A DNA stretch of 64,000 nt, from the NCBI RefSeq assembly GCF_053078305.1, contig NZ_CP166879.1; one strand, written 5' to 3'. The stretch's first letter is position 1; every line of letters begins with the position of its first letter. Under the pieces are notes generated by a model. That model was not told where the DNA came from. It saw only the letters and a list, made by a program, of their open reading frames with translations, and searched no databases. Below are positions 38,632 through 55,629 of this stretch, in pieces. Both the position numbers and the translations under genes were made by a program.

Positions 38632-38794
38632 AATGGCAGCCTCTTGGTTGAGTATTAATAACTCACCACCAAGGTTTTCCACGACCATAAGGGTGGTGAG
38701 ACGTACAGGGGTGGAAATACCGGTCAACCAAGAATCCGGCCAGCCTTGCGGCTGCCCTGCACGCCCCACCATAATCTGAATGTGGCTGTGCATT

Positions 38795-38823
38795 ACGCAT
38801 AAAAAAACCGCCTGAGCGCGGTT
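38795..38823 (-). terminator. Weak intrinsic terminator between the DicF-like RNA and the Rha-like gene
   Basis: Minus-strand AACCGCGCTCAGGCGG followed by TTTTTTT; stem only 4-5 bp. Confidence 0.3.
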
Positions 38824-39119
38824 ATGCGCTTGATTGAATTCCGGGTTTCCACGCCCGGCACCCGCTTTATGAGGTGCAGATGAACTATAATTCCACCCGT
38901 TCTGGTTTTCAATAGCTACATTCAACATTTTCTCTTACCCTTCATCACCGAAGTGAACTTTGTTGATGCAGTGCCTGGTGCCTCCAGGTGACGTTAACCA
39001 GTTAACAATTAACGCCGGAATACAGAAGTATGCCCGTTACGCCCCGTAAAAGACCACTTTACGGTTTTAACTGTTCCGCGTGCGCTTAGCCGCATTCACC
39101 GCATCACAAAATTCACTTT

Positions 39120-39177
39120 AAAAAGGGTGGCAGAGCAGTCACGGAGTAGAACTGATGCCACCAAAGACTACACATGG
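39120..39177 (-). ncRNA. dicF: DicF-like small RNA
   Basis: Minus strand reads ...GGTGGCATCAGTTCTACTCCGTGACTGCTCTGCCACCCTTTTT, near-identical to the 3' two-thirds of K-12 DicF including its terminator hairpin; 5' segment diverges. Confidence 0.55.
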
Positions 39178-46094: not shown

Positions 46095-46385
46095 CCTGGC
46101 CTGAAGCATTAACAACGGTAGGAATTGCGATGGCGGTGGCGCTGGTGGTGTATTCGATTTGCCGCTGGGGATAAAAACGGTTTGCGGGAAAAGGAGAGTT
46201 AAGTAGAATTGCAGCGGGTGCTTGAGGCTATCTGTCTCAGGCATGAACACCAAAAGGCAGATAGAGAAAAGCCCCAGTTAACATTACGCGTCCGGCAAGA
46301 CGCTTAACATTAATCTGAGGCTCAATCTGTGAACGGCAAATCTAGGTTAGCCTCTTACGCGCCGAAAGGCAAGGAGAAGCAGGCT

Positions 46386-46541
46386 ATGAAGCAGCAAAAG
46401 GCGATGTTAGTCGCCCTGATCGTCATCTGTATTACCGTCATTGTGACGGCACTGGTAACGAGGAAAGACCTCTGCGAGGTACGAATCCGAACCGGCCAGA
46501 CGGAGGTCGCTGTCTTCACAGCTTACGAACCTGAGGAGTAA
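46386..46541 (+). CDS. hokD: Hok/Gef-family type I toxin (HokD-like)
   Basis: Translation MKQQKAMLVALIVICITVIVTALVTRKDLCEVRIRTGQTEVAVFTAYEPEE; upstream in-frame extension corresponds to the overlapping mok frame. Confidence 0.85.
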   Translation: MKQQKAMLVALIVICITVIVTALVTRKDLCEVRIRTGQTEVAVFTAYEPEE

Positions 46542-49165: not shown

Positions 49166-49525
49166 ATGCTCATAGATTTGGTTTTACCTTACCCGCCGAC
49201 GGTGAACACTTACTGGCGACGCCGTGGCAGCACATATTTTGTATCAAAAGCAGGGGAGCGTTATCGCCGGGCAGTGGCACTTATTGTTCGCCAGCAGCGG
49301 CTGAAATTAAGCCTGTCCGGACGGCTGGCAATAAAAATTATTGCAGAGCCACCGGATAAGCGTCGTCGTGACCTGGACAATATTCTGAAAGCACCGCTGG
49401 ATGCGCTGACGCATGCGGGAGTGCTCATTGATGACGAGCAGTTTGATGAAATCAATATTGTACGTGGTCAGCTTGTTCCTGGTGGTCGGTTGGGTGTGAA
49501 GATTTACAAAATTGAGAGTGAGTGA
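49166..49525 (+). CDS. rusA: Holliday junction resolvase RusA
   Basis: 119-aa ORF MLIDLVLPYPPTVNTYW...RRRDLDNILKAPLDAL matching RusA. Confidence 0.85.
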   Translation: MLIDLVLPYPPTVNTYWRRRGSTYFVSKAGERYRRAVALIVRQQRLKLSLSGRLAIKIIAEPPDKRRRDLDNILKAPLDALTHAGVLIDDEQFDEINIVRGQLVPGGRLGVKIYKIESE

Positions 49526-50094
49526 GCGTAAATATGATATATCCGGAAATTACAGGCAAAAGCGGCGAACATTTACGCCTGAACACGCTGGAAGCAGTCT
49601 GGATCCAGGGGAAATTACGGATGTGGGGGCGGTGGTCGTATATCGGTGGGGGTAAATCCGGAAATATGTTTAACCGGTTACTGGTTTCGAAGAAGCTGAC
49701 GAAAACAGCAGTTAATGAGGTTTTACGCAGAATGAAGAAATCCGGGCTGGAAAAACCGGAACTTGAGGCATTTTTTCGGGATATGACCAGAGGGAAGCAG
49801 AAGAGCTGGTTGTCACATTGTACAGACACAGAGGCGTTGATTATTGATCGCGTTATCAGTGAGGTGCTTGGGGAATATCCCGGGCTAATCAATATTCTCC
49901 GGCAAAGGTACGAAGGACGGGGAATGAGCAAACTGAAAATGGCCGAAAGGTTAAATGCAGATCATCCTGAGTGGACGTTGGTTACGTGCAGACGCCGAAT
50001 TGATCAGTGGTTGGGGATATCTGAATTTATGTTACATGCCCCCATGCGTATGGCTTTTGTTACAGAGAAAAAAATGTTGCAAACTGATCAATAA
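49522..50094 (+). CDS. Putative late-gene antiterminator (Q-like)
   Basis: 190-aa ORF between rusA and the terminators/tRNAs; assignment by position and loose resemblance to QuuD-type Q proteins. Confidence 0.45.
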   Translation: MSVNMIYPEITGKSGEHLRLNTLEAVWIQGKLRMWGRWSYIGGGKSGNMFNRLLVSKKLTKTAVNEVLRRMKKSGLEKPELEAFFRDMTRGKQKSWLSHCTDTEALIIDRVISEVLGEYPGLINILRQRYEGRGMSKLKMAERLNADHPEWTLVTCRRRIDQWLGISEFMLHAPMRMAFVTEKKMLQTDQ

Positions 50095-50163
50095 ACTGCT
50101 TCAATCCGTATAAGCTTCGCAAGGCTGTATCGCGAGGCGAAACGCAAGTTTTTTCGCACAAGG

Positions 50164-50187
50164 AAGCCACCGGAAGGTGGTTTTTTT
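50164..50187 (+). terminator. Intrinsic terminator about 70 nt downstream of the Q-like gene
   Basis: CCACC-GGAA-GGTGG hairpin followed by TTTTTTT. Confidence 0.6.
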
Positions 50188-50310
50188 GTGTCCGTAATAT
50201 ACAGCAGCGCAATAAATTCGCTGGTGGTTATTAATACCGTTCTTTCAGCTTGCTGGCTTGTTCGACAAGAGTTATTGGTGTGTCACGTTAACCGGAAAAA
50301 GGAAAAAGAC

Positions 50311-50508
50311 ATGCTGAAACAGCAGGATATGACCGAAACCGCCAGAGTGGTGTTTAATGAATTAAGCGTCACAGAACCGGCGACAGTCGGGGAGATTGCG
50401 CAGAATACTTACCTTTCACGCGAACGCTGTCAGTTAATACTGACCCAGCTGGTTATGGCGGGTCTGGCAGACTATCAGTTCGGTTGTTACAGACGCCTTC
50501 AGTCCTGA
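50311..50508 (+). CDS. Hypothetical small protein, possibly winged-helix
   Basis: Translation MLKQQDMTETARVVFNELSVTEPATVGEIAQNTYLSRERCQLILTQLVMAGLADYQFGCYRRLQS; AAGGA SD upstream. Confidence 0.45.
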   Translation: MLKQQDMTETARVVFNELSVTEPATVGEIAQNTYLSRERCQLILTQLVMAGLADYQFGCYRRLQS

Positions 50509-50520
50509 AGGCTTTTTTAT
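50495..50520 (+). terminator. Intrinsic terminator overlapping the stop of the small ORF
   Basis: GCCTTCAG-TCC-TGAAGGC hairpin followed by TTTTTTAT. Confidence 0.65.
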
Positions 50521-50658: not shown

Positions 50659-51717
50659 ATGCTTAATACTGTAAAAATATCCAGTTGTGAGTTAATCAAC
50701 GCCGACTGCCTGGCATTTATCCGGTCGTTACCCGAAAATTCTGTTGACCTGATAGTCACGGACCCGCCGTACTTTAAAGTGAAGCCTGAGGGCTGGGATA
50801 ACCAGTGGAAGGGCGACGATGATTACCTGAAGTGGCTGGACCAGTGTCTTGCGCAGTTCTGGCGGGTGCTGAAACCTGCCGGAAGTCTTTACCTGTTCTG
50901 TGGCCATCGCCTGGCATCTGATATCGAAATCATGATGCGTGAACGCTTCAGTGTGCTGAACCATATTATCTGGGCAAAGCCGTCCGGACGCTGGAACGGG
51001 TGCAACAAGGAAAGCCTGAGGGCGTATTTCCCCGCCACAGAGCGCATTCTGTTCGCGGAACATTATCAGGGGCCGTATCGTCCGAAAGATGCCGGGTATG
51101 AGGCGAAGGGCAGGGCACTGAAACAGCATGTGATGGCCCCGCTGATTGCTTACTTTCGTGATGCGCGTGCTGCCCTGGGGATAACGGCAAAACAGATTGT
51201 GGATGCCACAGGAAAGAAAAACATGGTGTCGCACTGGTTCAGTGCCAGTCAGTGGCAGCTACCGAACGAAAGCGATTATCTGAAATTACAGGCGCTGTTT
51301 GCCCGGGTGGCAGAAGAGAAGCATCAGCGCGGTGAACTGGAAAAGCCCCACCACCAGCTGCTGGAGACGTATACTTCACTGAACCGGCAGTATGCGGAAC
51401 TGCAGAGTGAATATAAGCATCTGCGGCGGTATTTTGGCGTGACGGCGCAGGTGCCGTACACCGATGTGTGGACGCATAAACCGGTGCAGTACTATCCCGG
51501 GAAACATCCGTGCGAAAAACCGGCAGAAATGCTGCAGCAGATAATCAGCGCGAGCAGTCGTCCGGGGGACCTGGTTGCAGATTTTTTCATGGGGTCGGGT
51601 TCGACAGTCAAAGCCGCGATGGCGCTGGGGCGTCGTGCAACTGGCGTTGAGCTGGAGACTGAACGTTTTGAGCAGACGGTCAGGGAAGTACAGGATTTAG
51701 CCAGTCAGAACGGATGA
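50659..51717 (+). CDS. DNA methyltransferase (N6-adenine/N4-cytosine, DPPY type)
   Basis: N-terminal LIVTDPPYF and C-terminal FFMGSGST motifs; 352 aa with a long insert between them. Confidence 0.8.
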   Translation: MLNTVKISSCELINADCLAFIRSLPENSVDLIVTDPPYFKVKPEGWDNQWKGDDDYLKWLDQCLAQFWRVLKPAGSLYLFCGHRLASDIEIMMRERFSVLNHIIWAKPSGRWNGCNKESLRAYFPATERILFAEHYQGPYRPKDAGYEAKGRALKQHVMAPLIAYFRDARAALGITAKQIVDATGKKNMVSHWFSASQWQLPNESDYLKLQALFARVAEEKHQRGELEKPHHQLLETYTSLNRQYAELQSEYKHLRRYFGVTAQVPYTDVWTHKPVQYYPGKHPCEKPAEMLQQIISASSRPGDLVADFFMGSGSTVKAAMALGRRATGVELETERFEQTVREVQDLASQNG

Positions 51718-51757
51718 TATTGCAGTATTAGTTACGTACCGTTATTATCCTGCACCC

Positions 51758-51833
51758 GGCCCTTTAGCTCAGTGGTGAGAGCGAGCGACTCATAATCGCC
51801 AGGTCGCTGGTTCAAATCCAGCAAGGGCCACCA
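51758..51833 (+). tRNA. tRNA with CAU anticodon, ileX-like (tRNA-Ile2 lysidine type)
   Basis: Cloverleaf GGCCCTTTAGCTCAGTGGTGAGAGC...ACTCATAATCG...GGTTCAAATCC...AAGGGCCACCA; close to E. coli ileX. Confidence 0.75.
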
Positions 51834-51842
51834 TATCACATA

Positions 51843-51919
51843 CCGCCATTAGCTCATCGGGACAGAGCGTCAGCCTTCGAAGCTGGTTGCGCGGGGTTCG
51901 AGTCCTCGATGGCGGTCCA
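51843..51919 (+). tRNA. tRNA-Arg (anticodon TCG)
   Basis: Acceptor stem CCGCCAT/ATGGCGG, anticodon loop CTTCGAA, T-loop GGTTCGAGTCC, 3' CCA. Confidence 0.7.
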
Positions 51920-51932
51920 TTATCGGTATTCA

Positions 51933-52009
51933 GCGTTGTTAGCTCAGCCGGACAGAGCAATTGCCTTCTAAGCAATCGGTCACTGGTTCGAATCCAGTAC
52001 AACGCGCCA
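51933..52009 (+). tRNA. tRNA-Arg (anticodon TCT)
   Basis: Acceptor stem GCGTTGT/ACAACGC, anticodon loop CTTCTAA, T-loop GGTTCGAATCC, 3' CCA. Confidence 0.75.
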
Positions 52010-52178
52010 TACTTATTTTTCTGGCTCGCTTTTGCGGGCCTTTTTTGTATCCGCGCCACGCCCGGCGCATATCAACCACAGAGCCTTTCGGGGGTGAGCT
52101 TACGGAGTGGTCAGTGTGACTTTCTCTGTGGGCAGATCGCTCCCGGGCGTTGGCTCACCCACCCAAAGGAACGTCACG

Positions 52179-52610
52179 ATGTTTGGTATTTTCAAAAAGA
52201 AAACCCGCAGAGCAGCAACGGAAATTAAAAAGTTTGAGAAACGCGATCTGGCACAGGCGGTTATTAATGCTGCCTACCTGGTAGCCTATGCAGATGGTGA
52301 ATGTGAGGCTTCAGAGAAAGCGAAGATCGAACAGGTATTACGTAACCAGCCTGCGTTGTCCGCGTTTACGTCAGAAATTAATGCCATCAGTGCCACGATC
52401 ACAGGTCAGCTTGACACCAACTTTAAAATTGGTCGTCGAGCGGCGTTGCGTGAAATTGAAGATGTGAAACACGATACGCGTGAAGCGGAAGATGTGCTGG
52501 ATGTGGCGGTGGCTATTGCTGAAGCAGATGGTGAAATTGAGCCGGAAGAGCGTAAGGTTCTGGAAGAGATTGCAGGTGTTCTTGGCCTGCGACTGGAGAA
52601 CCACCTGTGA
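52179..52610 (+). CDS. TerB-domain protein
   Basis: Translation MFGIFKKKTRRAATEIKKFEKRDLAQAVINAAYLVAYADGECEASEKAKIEQVL...AIAEADGEIEPEERKVLEEIAGVLGL; AAAGGA SD upstream. Confidence 0.6.
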   Translation: MFGIFKKKTRRAATEIKKFEKRDLAQAVINAAYLVAYADGECEASEKAKIEQVLRNQPALSAFTSEINAISATITGQLDTNFKIGRRAALREIEDVKHDTREAEDVLDVAVAIAEADGEIEPEERKVLEEIAGVLGLRLENHL

Positions 52611-52771
52611 CGGTAAAACTGCGTCTGGCCGCTGTGGCACTCCTGCTGTTTCTGGTGGTGATGGTGGATTTCACCAGCAGGATCATGTCGGTGCTGGCGG
52701 ATGGAGTGCTGGTGGTCGGTATTGTGGTGGTGCTTTTTCCTTTGGTGAAAAAGGACATGCCAGGTAGTTAG
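52607..52771 (+). CDS. Possible small hydrophobic protein translationally coupled to the TerB-like gene
   Basis: GTG overlapping the upstream TGA (GTGA), GGAGA 7 nt upstream; 54 codons, two hydrophobic stretches; below the track length cutoff. Confidence 0.3.
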   Translation: MTVKLRLAAVALLLFLVVMVDFTSRIMSVLADGVLVVGIVVVLFPLVKKDMPGS

Positions 52772-53019
52772 CCGGGTATCAGTCATGCCCCGAAAATTTT
52801 AAATGTCTCACAATTCAGACGGTTGACAGTTGTCTGTTTTGCGGGGAGTTTGTTAAAAGAAACTGGCATGGTGAATCCCCCTGAGCGGAGGGGCGACTGG
52901 TGCATTAGGTGTTATCTTTGATACCTAGGAAAGTGAACGCGCGGGTTTGGTTGCACCGGGCTGAACTCACCGGGAGGCACCCGGCATCATGCGCATGATG
53001 ATACAGATACGCGGCTTTA

Positions 53020-53046
53020 GCCCCTCTCCGGAGGGGCTTTTATATG
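53020..53046 (+). terminator. Intrinsic terminator
   Basis: GCCCCTC-TCCG-GAGGGGC hairpin followed by TTTTATATG. Confidence 0.6.
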
Positions 53047-53072
53047 AATTTTGTAAGATATGAGTAAACTAA

Positions 53073-53408
53073 TTATGGACACTGTTGTTTTAGTCCGTAA
53101 GGGCATATTTGCAGAATGCAATGATTATTAAAGCATTCTTTCAATACGTTATCTGAATTTGCAGGACATTCCTGGCTGTTTTTGATTAAATCCCAGAATC
53201 TTTTATTGAATGGTACAACGTTGTAAATGGTTACAGGTAGCACTTTGTTATTAAGTACGATACCTGTGTGAGTCAACGTAAATATACTTTCAGGAGGTAA
53301 GAAAACATCCGATTGATACCAGATTATTAATTTTATTTTACTCCATATGGCTGAAAAAGATATTCCGCATGATGGCTGGATAACTGTATCAATCACAATC
53401 CACTTCAT
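53073..53408 (-). CDS. Hypothetical Cys-rich protein on an AT-rich antisense island
   Basis: 111-aa ORF with AAGGAGG SD 5 nt upstream of the ATG; seven Cys, five in the C-terminal third; region visibly AT-rich. Confidence 0.55.
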
Positions 53409-53661
53409 TTAGCCTCCTTATTTATGCTGTGCTGGTGATGTTCTGAAAAGTATAAATGATAATTTTGAATGTAAACCATAGAGCAGAATTATTTTTCTGA
53501 TGTTGTTTATTTAAATACAGGTTTTTTATATCCCGTCTTGTAGTTTATCCATGCATACCTGCTTTATGATGAGGTTTTCATTTAAGGTATGGTTTTGTGT
53601 TTTTTTCTGTATTTCATGTCAGGTATTTTAAAGAATTGTTTTTAATATGGTGGAAAGAACC

Positions 53662-55629
53662 ATGGCATTTAAACACTACGATGTGGTCAGGGCGGCGTCG
53701 CCGTCAGACCTTGCGGAGCGACTGACTCAAAAACTGAAGGAGGGGTGGCAGCCATTTGGCAGTCCTGTCGCCATCACGCCTTATACCCTGATGCAGGCCA
53801 TTGCGGCGGAAGGTGATGTCACCACACCTGTGCTGGTGAAGCCGTCGGATGGAGAAGGCACAGTTATCAGCACCACCAGCGAACCGGAGTATTACTTTGT
53901 TGTTGTTCTGGCGGGGCAGTCAAACAGCATGGCATATGGTGAAGGCCTTCCGCTGCCGGAGACATATGACCGTCCGGACCCGCGTATTAAGCAGCTGGCG
54001 CGCCGCAGTACGGTGACACCGGGCGGTGCCGCCTGTAAGTATAACGACATTATTCCGGCGGACCATTGTCTGCATGATGTGCAGGACATGAGCCGTCTTA
54101 ACCATCCGAAAGCGAACCTGTCAAAGGGGCAGTACGGAACCGTGGGGCAGGGGCTGCATATCGGCAAAAAACTGCTGCCGTTTATACCGGCGAATGCGGG
54201 CATTCTGCTGGTTCCGTGCTGCCGTGGTGCTTCGGCATTCACAACGGGTGCAGACGGCACATACAGCGAATCAGCCGGTGCATCGGAAAATTCACTGCGC
54301 TGGGGTGTGGGTAAGCCGCTGTATCAGGATTTGGTGAGCCGGACTAAAGCCGCACTGGCGAAGAACCCGAAAAACCGTCTGCTTGCGGTGGTGTGGATGC
54401 AGGGAGAAGGTGATGCGGCAGTGGGGACGCATGCGCAGCATCCGGGGCTGTTTAGTGCGATGGTGAATCAGTTCAGAACGGAGCTTGCCGGTCTGGCATC
54501 ACAGAGCACAGGAGGCAGCGCATCAGCGGTACCGTGGATTTGCGGGGACACAACGTATTTCTGGAAGCAGCGTCATGCGGAAGGGTATGCATCAGTATAC
54601 GGAGGGTATAAGGGTAAGGAGTCGCAGAACATTTTCTTTGTACCGTTAATGACGGATGAGAATGGTGCGAATGTGCAGACCAATGACCCGGCAGAAGACC
54701 CGGACCTGGAAGCCGTCGGTTATTACGGTTCAAAGTGGCGTAATGACCAGAAGACCTGGACATCTGTGGACAGGGCAAGCCATTTCAGTTCATGGGCACG
54801 CCGTGGGATTATTTCCGACCGTCTGGCAACGGCGATTCTGGTGCATGCCGGGAGAACTGCTGAATTCATTACCGGAAAACAGCCTGATACGGTGAAGCCC
54901 ACCGGACCTTCCGGTGAAGGCCCGGAGAGAGAGCCGGAAGCCCCGGTCAGTAACCGAACCCTGATGAGTCTGCTGGCGTCCGGTGAAGACCTGGCATCAC
55001 AGGGCTGGCGCTATTATCACAAACCGGCGAGCGGAGACAATGTTGATAAAAACATCGCTGAGGCTGTGGTCAGTGATGAGGGTGCCACCGGTGGTAAGGC
55101 CCTGCAACTGAACAAACCGGAAAGCCACATCTGGTTTCTGGAGCATGATGCCGCCGGGCAGGGGGCAGAGTTGCTGAAGAAAGGCGGACGTGTGAGCGTA
55201 CGGTTTAAGGTGCCGGGCTCACTGGTGCCGAATCAGTTTGCCCTGGGTATTTACTGGCAGTTGTCGTCCCTGCCGGAGGGAGTGACGCTGGCAGAGGAAG
55301 GCAACGACATGCTGATGTCCTTCTTCCTGCAGACGGATGCGACGAACCTGAACGCGATGTACCACAAGAAGCAGAATGCGAAGCTGGATACGTTCGGGGT
55401 CTTTGATAACGGATGGCACACACTGGCTTTTGAGTTTGCCGGAAACAACAGCATTCAGGTGACGCCGGTACTGGATGAGAAACGGGGTACACCGTTCACA
55501 CTGGTGAAATCTCCGGCATCAGGGGCGGCGGACAAACTGCAACTGACAGGCATATCAAAGGCGGCGACATATACGTTGCTGATTGACAGTGTGAAGGTGG
55601 AAGTGAACAACGCGGACGCCGCGGCATGA
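53662..55629 (+). CDS. Prophage O-acetyl sialic acid esterase NanS-p-like protein (DUF1737 + SGNH/DUF303)
   Basis: About 655-aa ORF; N-terminal MAFKHYDVVRAASPSDLAERL... segment and VVVLAGQSNSMAYGEG esterase motif; located after the tRNAs and before the lysis genes as in Stx phages. Start could be the ATG at 53647. Confidence 0.7.
   Translation: MAFKHYDVVRAASPSDLAERLTQKLKEGWQPFGSPVAITPYTLMQAIAAEGDVTTPVLVKPSDGEGTVISTTSEPEYYFVVVLAGQSNSMAYGEGLPLPETYDRPDPRIKQLARRSTVTPGGAACKYNDIIPADHCLHDVQDMSRLNHPKANLSKGQYGTVGQGLHIGKKLLPFIPANAGILLVPCCRGASAFTTGADGTYSESAGASENSLRWGVGKPLYQDLVSRTKAALAKNPKNRLLAVVWMQGEGDAAVGTHAQHPGLFSAMVNQFRTELAGLASQSTGGSASAVPWICGDTTYFWKQRHAEGYASVYGGYKGKESQNIFFVPLMTDENGANVQTNDPAEDPDLEAVGYYGSKWRNDQKTWTSVDRASHFSSWARRGIISDRLATAILVHAGRTAEFITGKQPDTVKPTGPSGEGPEREPEAPVSNRTLMSLLASGEDLASQGWRYYHKPASGDNVDKNIAEAVVSDEGATGGKALQLNKPESHIWFLEHDAAGQGAELLKKGGRVSVRFKVPGSLVPNQFALGIYWQLSSLPEGVTLAEEGNDMLMSFFLQTDATNLNAMYHKKQNAKLDTFGVFDNGWHTLAFEFAGNNSIQVTPVLDEKRGTPFTLVKSPASGAADKLQLTGISKAATYTLLIDSVKVEVNNADAAA

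Follow-up and report, generated by a model that had tools for sequence, protein, structure and literature searches.

The region at 52179-53046 on the + strand of a 64-kb stretch of contig NZ_CP166879.1 (assembly GCF_053078305.1), hereafter the window, is best explained as a whole, with somewhat better than even confidence, as a three-part accessory ('moron') module occupying the lambdoid prophage slot that Shiga toxin (Stx) phages fill with stxAB. It comprises tciA, which encodes a TerB-fold protein, the overlapping small gene tciB, and the gene for a small RNA (sRNA) of the STnc100 family. Everything that a first-pass annotation had described here, namely three transfer RNA (tRNA) genes, a TerB open reading frame (ORF), an ORF starting with GTG, a GC-rich tail and a terminator hairpin, is present in the sequence. 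The gene, the small ORF and the whole tail stand far above chance, each giving a strong match to a curated family and recurring in hundreds of phages or prophages. The cassette is already known, since tciA, tciB and STnc100 are labelled in RefSeq, PHROGs and Rfam, and with all three elements catalogued that annotation carries little novelty. Upstream of tciA, outside the annotated coordinates, lies a conserved structured 5' leader that has apparently not been described. We put forward tentatively, at somewhat less than even chances, that its segment at 52076-52178 (~100 nt) represents an undescribed class of bistable cis-regulatory RNA, either a riboswitch or a kinetic switch of the 'translate only while nascent' type, controlling a TerB-TciB membrane module.

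The TerB call on the 143-residue product of tciA was upheld by profile searches. Pfam TerB (PF05099) matched residues 26-138 (i-E 1.2e-12), PHROG 632 ("tellurite resistance") covered positions 1-143 of 143 (E 1.1e-69) and the solved Klebsiella TerB 2JXU_A matched query residues 14-137 with its chain residues 20-144 (E 9.4e-8); on an almost identical locus, RefSeq gives the label 'tellurite resistance TerB family protein'. TciA is a soluble protein of the cytoplasm with the TerB fold. Its two acidic motifs, ADGxxxxxE, align with the DG....E motifs of 2JXU (ADGECEASEK with ASDGVSSEEK and ADGEIEPEER with SDGNFDDDEK). The gene starts at an ATG with a Shine-Dalgarno (SD) sequence, AAGGA, 8 nt upstream, and is under purifying selection: among 37 distinct DNA alleles, synonymous differences reach 47% and non-synonymous differences ~1%, giving a ratio of non-synonymous to synonymous differences (pN/pS) of ~0.02. 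Relatives of TciA are encoded by 131 phage genomes, including P1-like, lambdoid, N4-like, jumbo, Vibrio and Pseudomonas phages, and TciA of phage P1 is 42-52% identical over its full length. What had been taken for a solitary TerB copy is instead one half of a conserved gene pair, tciA-tciB, which first received its name in phage P1 and occurs in lambdoid, P1-like, N4-like and jumbo phages.

The second half of this pair, noted earlier as a possibly coupled hydrophobic ORF, proved to be a real coupled gene. Its GTG start overlaps the TGA stop of tciA as GTGA, with GGAG 10 nt upstream of the GTG. Of the 85 loci examined, 83 keep this overlap; its form in P1 is TGATG. TciB matches Pfam DUF3927 (PF13064; E 3.4e-16) and PHROG 1470, 'TciB-like' (E 1.4e-24), is annotated by RefSeq at identical coordinates and shows purifying selection (pN/pS 0.13-0.35, with pS up to 0.43); on these signatures tciB is a protein-coding gene. 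In the hydropathy profile, two hydrophobic segments, predicted to span the membrane, flank a conserved DFTS+.MS.LADG motif. The gene directly follows TerB in P1, JLK-2012, Fostie, an Actinobacillus phage, Escherichia phage Evi and Klebsiella phages, as well as in the N4-like phages SP-076 and Pollock, and a more divergent form is found in jumbo Machinavirus phages. These homologues were located by position and by profile, as a tblastn search of the phage collection with TciB gave no match, probably owing to the low-complexity filter acting on a hydrophobic 54-mer. Elsewhere in E. coli prophages, DUF3927 genes stand 'solo', and we rejected the idea that these point to TciB acting alone: each is a remnant of tciB that has lost its 5' part and is joined to unrelated sequence, with the breakpoint inside tciB (L002 3290-3421, L086 1762-1878 and L087 2294-2422). 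Such remnants evidently mark sites where other cargo, for example a 118-residue ORF in L002, replaced tciA.

The placement of the cassette at the equivalent of the stx locus, as first suggested, was borne out by comparison with the Stx2a phage Stx2_EH2246. In that phage the order is Q, a small ORF, a DNA methylase gene, tRNA(CAT), two tRNA-Arg genes, stx2A and stx2B, continuing with STnc100, iraM on the opposite strand, the yjhS esterase gene and the holin gene. The window is collinear with this arrangement, with leader-tciA-tciB in the place of stx2AB: similarity extends through the terminator that follows the tRNA genes, which has an identical hairpin in Stx2_EH2246, ends at ~52058 and resumes at ~52804. 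At other tciA loci the hairpin in this position has different stem sequences that still pair. The cassette is present in 1,245 of 5,426 complete E. coli genomes, at up to 8 copies per genome.

The tail downstream of tciB had been described as GC-rich and structured. Its hairpins, palindrome and terminator are all there; they form a separate sRNA gene, STnc100, rather than loose palindromes. The match to Rfam RF02076 (STnc100) at 52837-53049 scores 140.9 bits, where the gathering score is 47 (E 2e-32), and covers model positions 1-206 of 206. The sequence CCCCTGAGCGGAGGGG at 52878-52893, picked out in the first-pass annotation, is the hairpin CCCCU/AGGGG, the first of the STnc100 model, and the copy also contains the invariant hairpin CCGGGAGGCACCCGG and the terminator at 53019-38. 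The long-range closing helix of the model pairs GCAUGGUG (52866-73) with CAUCAUGC (52985-92). The 16-bp palindrome CATCATGCGCATGATG is perfect, as had been reported, and lies at 52985-53000, one base off the position given before (52986-53001). Its first half, CAUCAUGC, is the 3' strand of the closing helix and its second half duplicates the 5' strand, so that the local hairpin is an alternative fold; in the STnc100 copy of Stx2_EH2246, the two halves vary in concert (T..A becomes C..G). A role of the palindrome as a protein operator was set aside, as it sits within an RNA gene and such palindromes occur at chance level in the window (1 observed against 0.98 expected).

Promoter-like elements precede the sRNA: TTGACA (52823-28), TTGTCT (52830-35) and an extended -10-like TGT-TAAAAG (52851-59). 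The ~60 nt that include TTGACA and TGT-TAAAAG are conserved in alignment after tciB, stx2B and stx1B alike, and since this stretch is kept whichever gene precedes it, we infer that STnc100 probably has its own promoter. Judged by sequence, STnc100 belongs to the phage backbone and not to the TerB cassette. Homologues occur in 351 phage records, mostly of Stx phages, and lie just downstream of stxB in the three examined. Published work places STnc100 just downstream of stx2B, partially overlapped by the Hfq-bound sRNA EcOnc27/sRNA103 (PMC12711010, PMC7873438), and finds it in multiple copies in enterohaemorrhagic E. coli (EHEC), with 11 copies in EDL933, of which one was confirmed by Northern blot (PMC5331693). 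Homologous EHEC copies bind Hfq according to Hfq-CRAC (cross-linking and analysis of cDNA; PMC7873438), STnc100 has been detected in outer membrane vesicles of Shiga toxin-producing E. coli (PMC12370729), and the family is related to PasD of enteropathogenic E. coli, with seed regions that differ among its members (bioRxiv 10.64898/2026.05.13.724894). We dropped the idea that the sRNA pairs with the tciA leader, as the predicted interaction (-93.4 kcal/mol) was no better than that of shuffled sRNAs (mean -93.7 kcal/mol, with 50% of shuffles as good).

The leader is more conserved than the gene that it precedes. Its identity is 96-99% where tciA DNA is 89% identical, it remains 83-84% identical before tciA genes of the Klebsiella, Fostie and Leclercia type, whose proteins are only 42-43% identical to the TciA of the window, and it is recognizable in jumbo Erwinia and Salmonella phages. 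Its position and strand relative to the tciA start are fixed across unrelated phage backbones. In a pattern scan of one representative genome per species, the leader abuts tciA in eight genomes: two species of Pantoea, Citrobacter, two species of Franconibacter, Leclercia, Pseudocitrobacter and one metagenome-assembled genome. The remaining 17 of the 25 matches had neither leader nor tciA and were discarded as chance matches, some ~35 such matches being expected for 17 specified bases. With Rfam 15, a scan of 51000-54000 returned nothing for the leader at E<=1, and a scan of 52010-52200 alone returned weak terminator-like or generic-hairpin matches of <=17.6 bits, far below the gathering scores. 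Between leader types, indels disrupt the reading frame, which led us to reject both a leader peptide and an extension of tciA at its N terminus (from the GTG at 52107). In PPompW-type prophages (for example, LC567822.1 15657-15715), the leader is broken after ~59 nt, around window position 52094 by homology, by the IS110-family insertion sequence ISEc20.

Two mutually exclusive folds are predicted for this leader (Table 1). In fold Y, the SD is buried through pairing of the anti-SD CCUUU and the G-run with GGCUCACCC..AAAGG; the helix has 15 pairs with 97.6% of cells paired, one compensatory G-C/A-U pair and only wobble changes in the anti-SD. In fold X, the same anti-SD and G-run segment pairs with block N, leaving the SD free, and a separate compensatory pair supports this helix. 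All 8 pairs of a third helix, Pa (CCACAGAG/CUCUGUGG), are kept, and two of them are compensatory in the jumbo-phage clade; the three helices exclude one another. Few blocks of the leader vary as little as the SD and anti-SD. In slid controls, 23-55% of cells are paired, and the observed covariation score was reached in 0 of 500 shuffles. Across 15 variants, X and Y are close in predicted energy, 0.2-6 kcal/mol apart, and Pa is predicted to be 6-19 kcal/mol less stable than the minimum-energy fold. Alignment of whole leaders with MAFFT and RNAalifold misplaced the jumbo-phage rows around block A', and Pa and Y were therefore counted with blocks M and N cut out. An RNA thermometer is not favoured, as the predicted unpaired probability of the SD barely shifts between 25 and 45 C.

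Table 1 Features of the leader-tciAB-STnc100 locus in window coordinates.
Feature	Position	Strand	Basis or remark
Three tRNA genes	51758-52009	+	tRNA calls
Intrinsic-terminator-like hairpin GGCTCGC-TTTT-GCGGGCC and T run	52023-52046 (hairpin 52023-52040)	+	Terminator scan; directly after third tRNA
Conserved structured 5' leader of tciA	52058-52178	+	Conservation, covariation; ~140 nt non-coding between hairpin and tciA
Leader block A, CCACAGAG	52076-83	+	
Leader anti-SD, CCTTT	52084-88	+	
Leader G-run, GGGGTGAGC	52091-99	+	
Leader block A', CTCTGTGG	52124-31	+	
Leader block N	52132-51	+	
Leader block B', GGCTCACCC	52152-60	+	
Leader SD, AAAGG	52165-69	+	
tciA, 143 aa, ATG ORF	52179-52610	+	Pfam, PHROG, PDB, RefSeq
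tciB, 54 aa, GTG ORF	52607-52771	+	Pfam DUF3927, PHROG 1470, RefSeq
Promoter-like stretch upstream of sRNA	52823-52859	+	Conservation after tciB, stx2B, stx1B
STnc100-family sRNA gene	52837-53049	+	Rfam RF02076; probable transcript ~52866-53043
Strong terminator hairpin, then T run	53019-53038	+	Terminator scan

These elements suggest a scheme in which the cassette is probably transcribed mainly by Q-antiterminated late transcription, judging from gene order: it lies downstream of Q and behind a terminator, a consensus promoter scan of the + strand found no promoter for tciAB, and tciABC of P1 is under C1 control. In the leader, conformer Y would bury the ribosome-binding site and conformer X would free it, so gating translation of tciA in response to a trigger that, like the regulatory effect itself, is conjectural. 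As the GTG start of tciB overlaps the tciA stop, TciB would be produced by translational coupling, through which the leader would gate tciB as well. By analogy with the reported TerC-TerB complex (PMC12054061, PMC11003894), the most likely role of TciB is to anchor TciA at the inner membrane. There the pair may act, while the phage grows, as a small module for membrane or cation stress, which is the least secure step of the scheme. STnc100 would be a separate Hfq-binding sRNA gene with a promoter-like region and a terminator of its own. The conserved coupling and the retention of the pair in strictly lytic phages suggest that tciAB serves lytic phage growth rather than protection of the lysogen.

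Several observations weigh against this scheme. The negative promoter scan is weak evidence for Q dependence, since the same scan also failed to flag the promoter-like stretch upstream of the sRNA. The names of the P1 tci genes were given 'by homology', and the genes are dispensable for plaque formation by P1. No TciB follows the TerB protein in one Vibrio phage and one Pseudomonas phage, which indicates that TciA can do without this partner. The leader helices were derived from the same sequences on which they were scored, with the variable blocks M and N excised for the count, and the covariation reflects few independent events, essentially three sequence types and the jumbo-phage clade. Finally, the SD is mostly free in the minimum-energy fold predicted for the variant carried by the window, which may make ON the default state.

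Among the other accounts of the gene pair, the one we take most seriously, while still considering it unlikely, is that tciAB is an exclusion or defence moron that benefits the lysogen, with a membrane TciA-TciB complex blocking the entry of superinfecting DNA or pore-forming colicins. TerB-like domains do occur in some defence systems, for example in SngA of Shango, and the cassette sits in a classic moron slot where it is swapped with toxin genes, is found in as many as 8 copies in one E. coli genome and, as tciABC, is among the variable regions of P1-like elements. Inhibition of phages and resistance to colicins have moreover been associated with ter operons (PMC9603915, PMC8123226, PMC12054061). 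Yet strictly lytic N4-like and jumbo phages carry the cassette and gain nothing from guarding a lysogen, and it lies behind a terminator in a late operon here and is C1-repressed in P1. Searches of the PADLOC-DB defence models gave as the best match to TciA only PDC-S48 (E 0.002 over 35 residues) and no match for TciB, and no helicase or ATPase partner genes are found among the annotated neighbours. That tciAB is a tellurite-resistance determinant, as its database names in Pfam, PHROG and RefSeq and its full-length similarity to TerB would have it, we regard as highly improbable, because TerC and TerD are missing nearby. The neighbours of tciA are the tRNA genes, tciB, STnc100, iraM and the esterase gene, with no terC, terD, terE or terZ among them, whereas TerC-TerD forms the minimal tellurium-resistance unit in E. 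coli according to work cited in PMC12054061; the P1 name, too, is explicitly one of homology.

The two RNA elements can likewise be read in simpler terms. Many Hfq-dependent sRNAs are cut from 3' untranslated regions (UTRs), and the tail shares the strand of tciAB, at a distance of 66 nt from tciB. No strong terminator other than the one at its end lies downstream of this operon, as would be the case if the tciAB messenger RNA simply had this stretch as its 3' UTR and terminator. This is nonetheless improbable, given that the element and the ~60 nt upstream of it (TTGACA, TGnTAAAAG) also follow stx2B, stx1B and truncated tciB remnants, and that homologues are seen as discrete Hfq-bound RNAs on Northern blots (PMC5331693, PMC7873438). 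A little less improbable, though still doubtful, is that the leader is conserved for a reason acting on DNA, as a recombination joint, a protein operator or a target of insertion sequences, and is not an RNA switch. It does lie at the cassette boundary, ISEc20 has inserted within it in PPompW phages, and its GC-rich repeats, which are conserved, are potential protein-binding sites. Against this, substitutions are compensatory or wobble-compatible in three different helices, the SD and anti-SD rank with the blocks that vary least, and placement and strand are tied to the tciA start in unrelated backbones.

The surroundings of the cassette gave several further observations. The first tRNA gene (51758-51833) is called Met(CAT) by ARAGORN and tRNA-Ile by RefSeq, that is, a lysidine-modified Ile2 like ileZ and ileX. 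Unrelated phages have tRNA genes shortly before the cassette: Ile2/Arg/Arg in the window, Asn/Thr/Gly in JLK-2012, Asn/Thr in P1 (with Ile2 downstream), Trp/Cys in jumbo phages and one tRNA gene in Klebsiella phage 5 LV-2017. Converging on the STnc100 terminator is a gene for a 111-residue homologue of IraM, an RssB anti-adaptor (53073-53408, - strand; NCBIfam NF007393, 161 bits against a cutoff of 121), which is placed equally in Stx2_EH2246. A Q-like antiterminator gene lies at ~49264-50085 (+), followed shortly by a hairpin and T run, CCACCGGAAGGTGG-TTTTTTT, at ~50166-50187, and a second terminator-like site lies downstream of Q at 50495-50512 (+); the sites at 50090-50190 and 50495-50520 are plausibly the pR'/tR' region of the prophage, in an StxS-like position. 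Other Rfam matches above gathering score are a C4 antisense RNA (38689-38776), isrK (38801-38877) and DicF (39125-39176), all on the - strand, and a sok antitoxin RNA (46216-46391, +).

For phage genomics, the locus presents tciAB and stxAB as alternative cargos of one slot, bounded by tRNA genes and a terminator on one side and STnc100 on the other, which helps to read the mosaicism of Stx phages. TciA and TciB are a widespread phage gene pair whose 20-year-old name derives from homology only, and the leader is a candidate regulatory RNA that is cheap to test and offers a handle on TerB biology. Were it bistable as proposed, its trigger would reveal what the TerB module senses or does, and unrelated lineages (lambdoid phages, jumbo phages and prophages of at least eight enterobacterial species) would have kept the leader together with the TerB-TciB module.

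Translational leaders with two states are known from riboswitch expression platforms and from metastable leaders such as those of hok messenger RNA and the MS2 maturation gene. The tciA leader resembles these in its mutually exclusive helices that expose or sequester the SD and in a 5'-proximal hairpin (Pa) that could form first during transcription; it differs in having no match to an Rfam family and no predicted temperature dependence. The STnc100 copy of the window resembles those of EHEC in its full-length covariance-model match, its location with the stx slot on one side and the genes for the esterase and lysis on the other, and its Hfq-type terminator end, and differs in its variant-specific palindrome (52985-53000) and a different variable hairpin (52905-52935). 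Compared with TerB of the terZABCDE(F) cluster (2JXU), TciA has the same domain and size with both acidic motifs aligned, and in both systems a soluble TerB is joined by a membrane partner. The partner here is a 54-residue protein with two hydrophobic segments, in contrast to the multi-pass TerC, and the genes lie in a phage late region without TerC, TerD, TerE or TerZ.

Also among the closest known systems is tciABC of phage P1. It differs in possessing a third small gene, tciC, absent here, and in its expression from the C1-controlled ban operon, behind a C1 operator, as opposed to a late region that is probably Q-dependent. P1 also does not have the conserved leader, and a partial STnc100-like core stands upstream of tciA instead. 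This core, at 1648-1767 of P1 (L003, NC_005856), scores 33.4 bits (E 4e-4; model positions 31-147), which is below the gathering score, and includes CACCGGGAAGCACCCGGCACC; as it lies directly upstream of P1 tciA, STnc100-like sequence and tciAB are neighbours in P1 too, in reversed order. The two systems agree in other respects: TciB of P1 also has 54 residues and shares the motif LVDFTS..LSVL(A/S)DG.LV, and in both the stop and start codons overlap and tRNA genes are adjacent.

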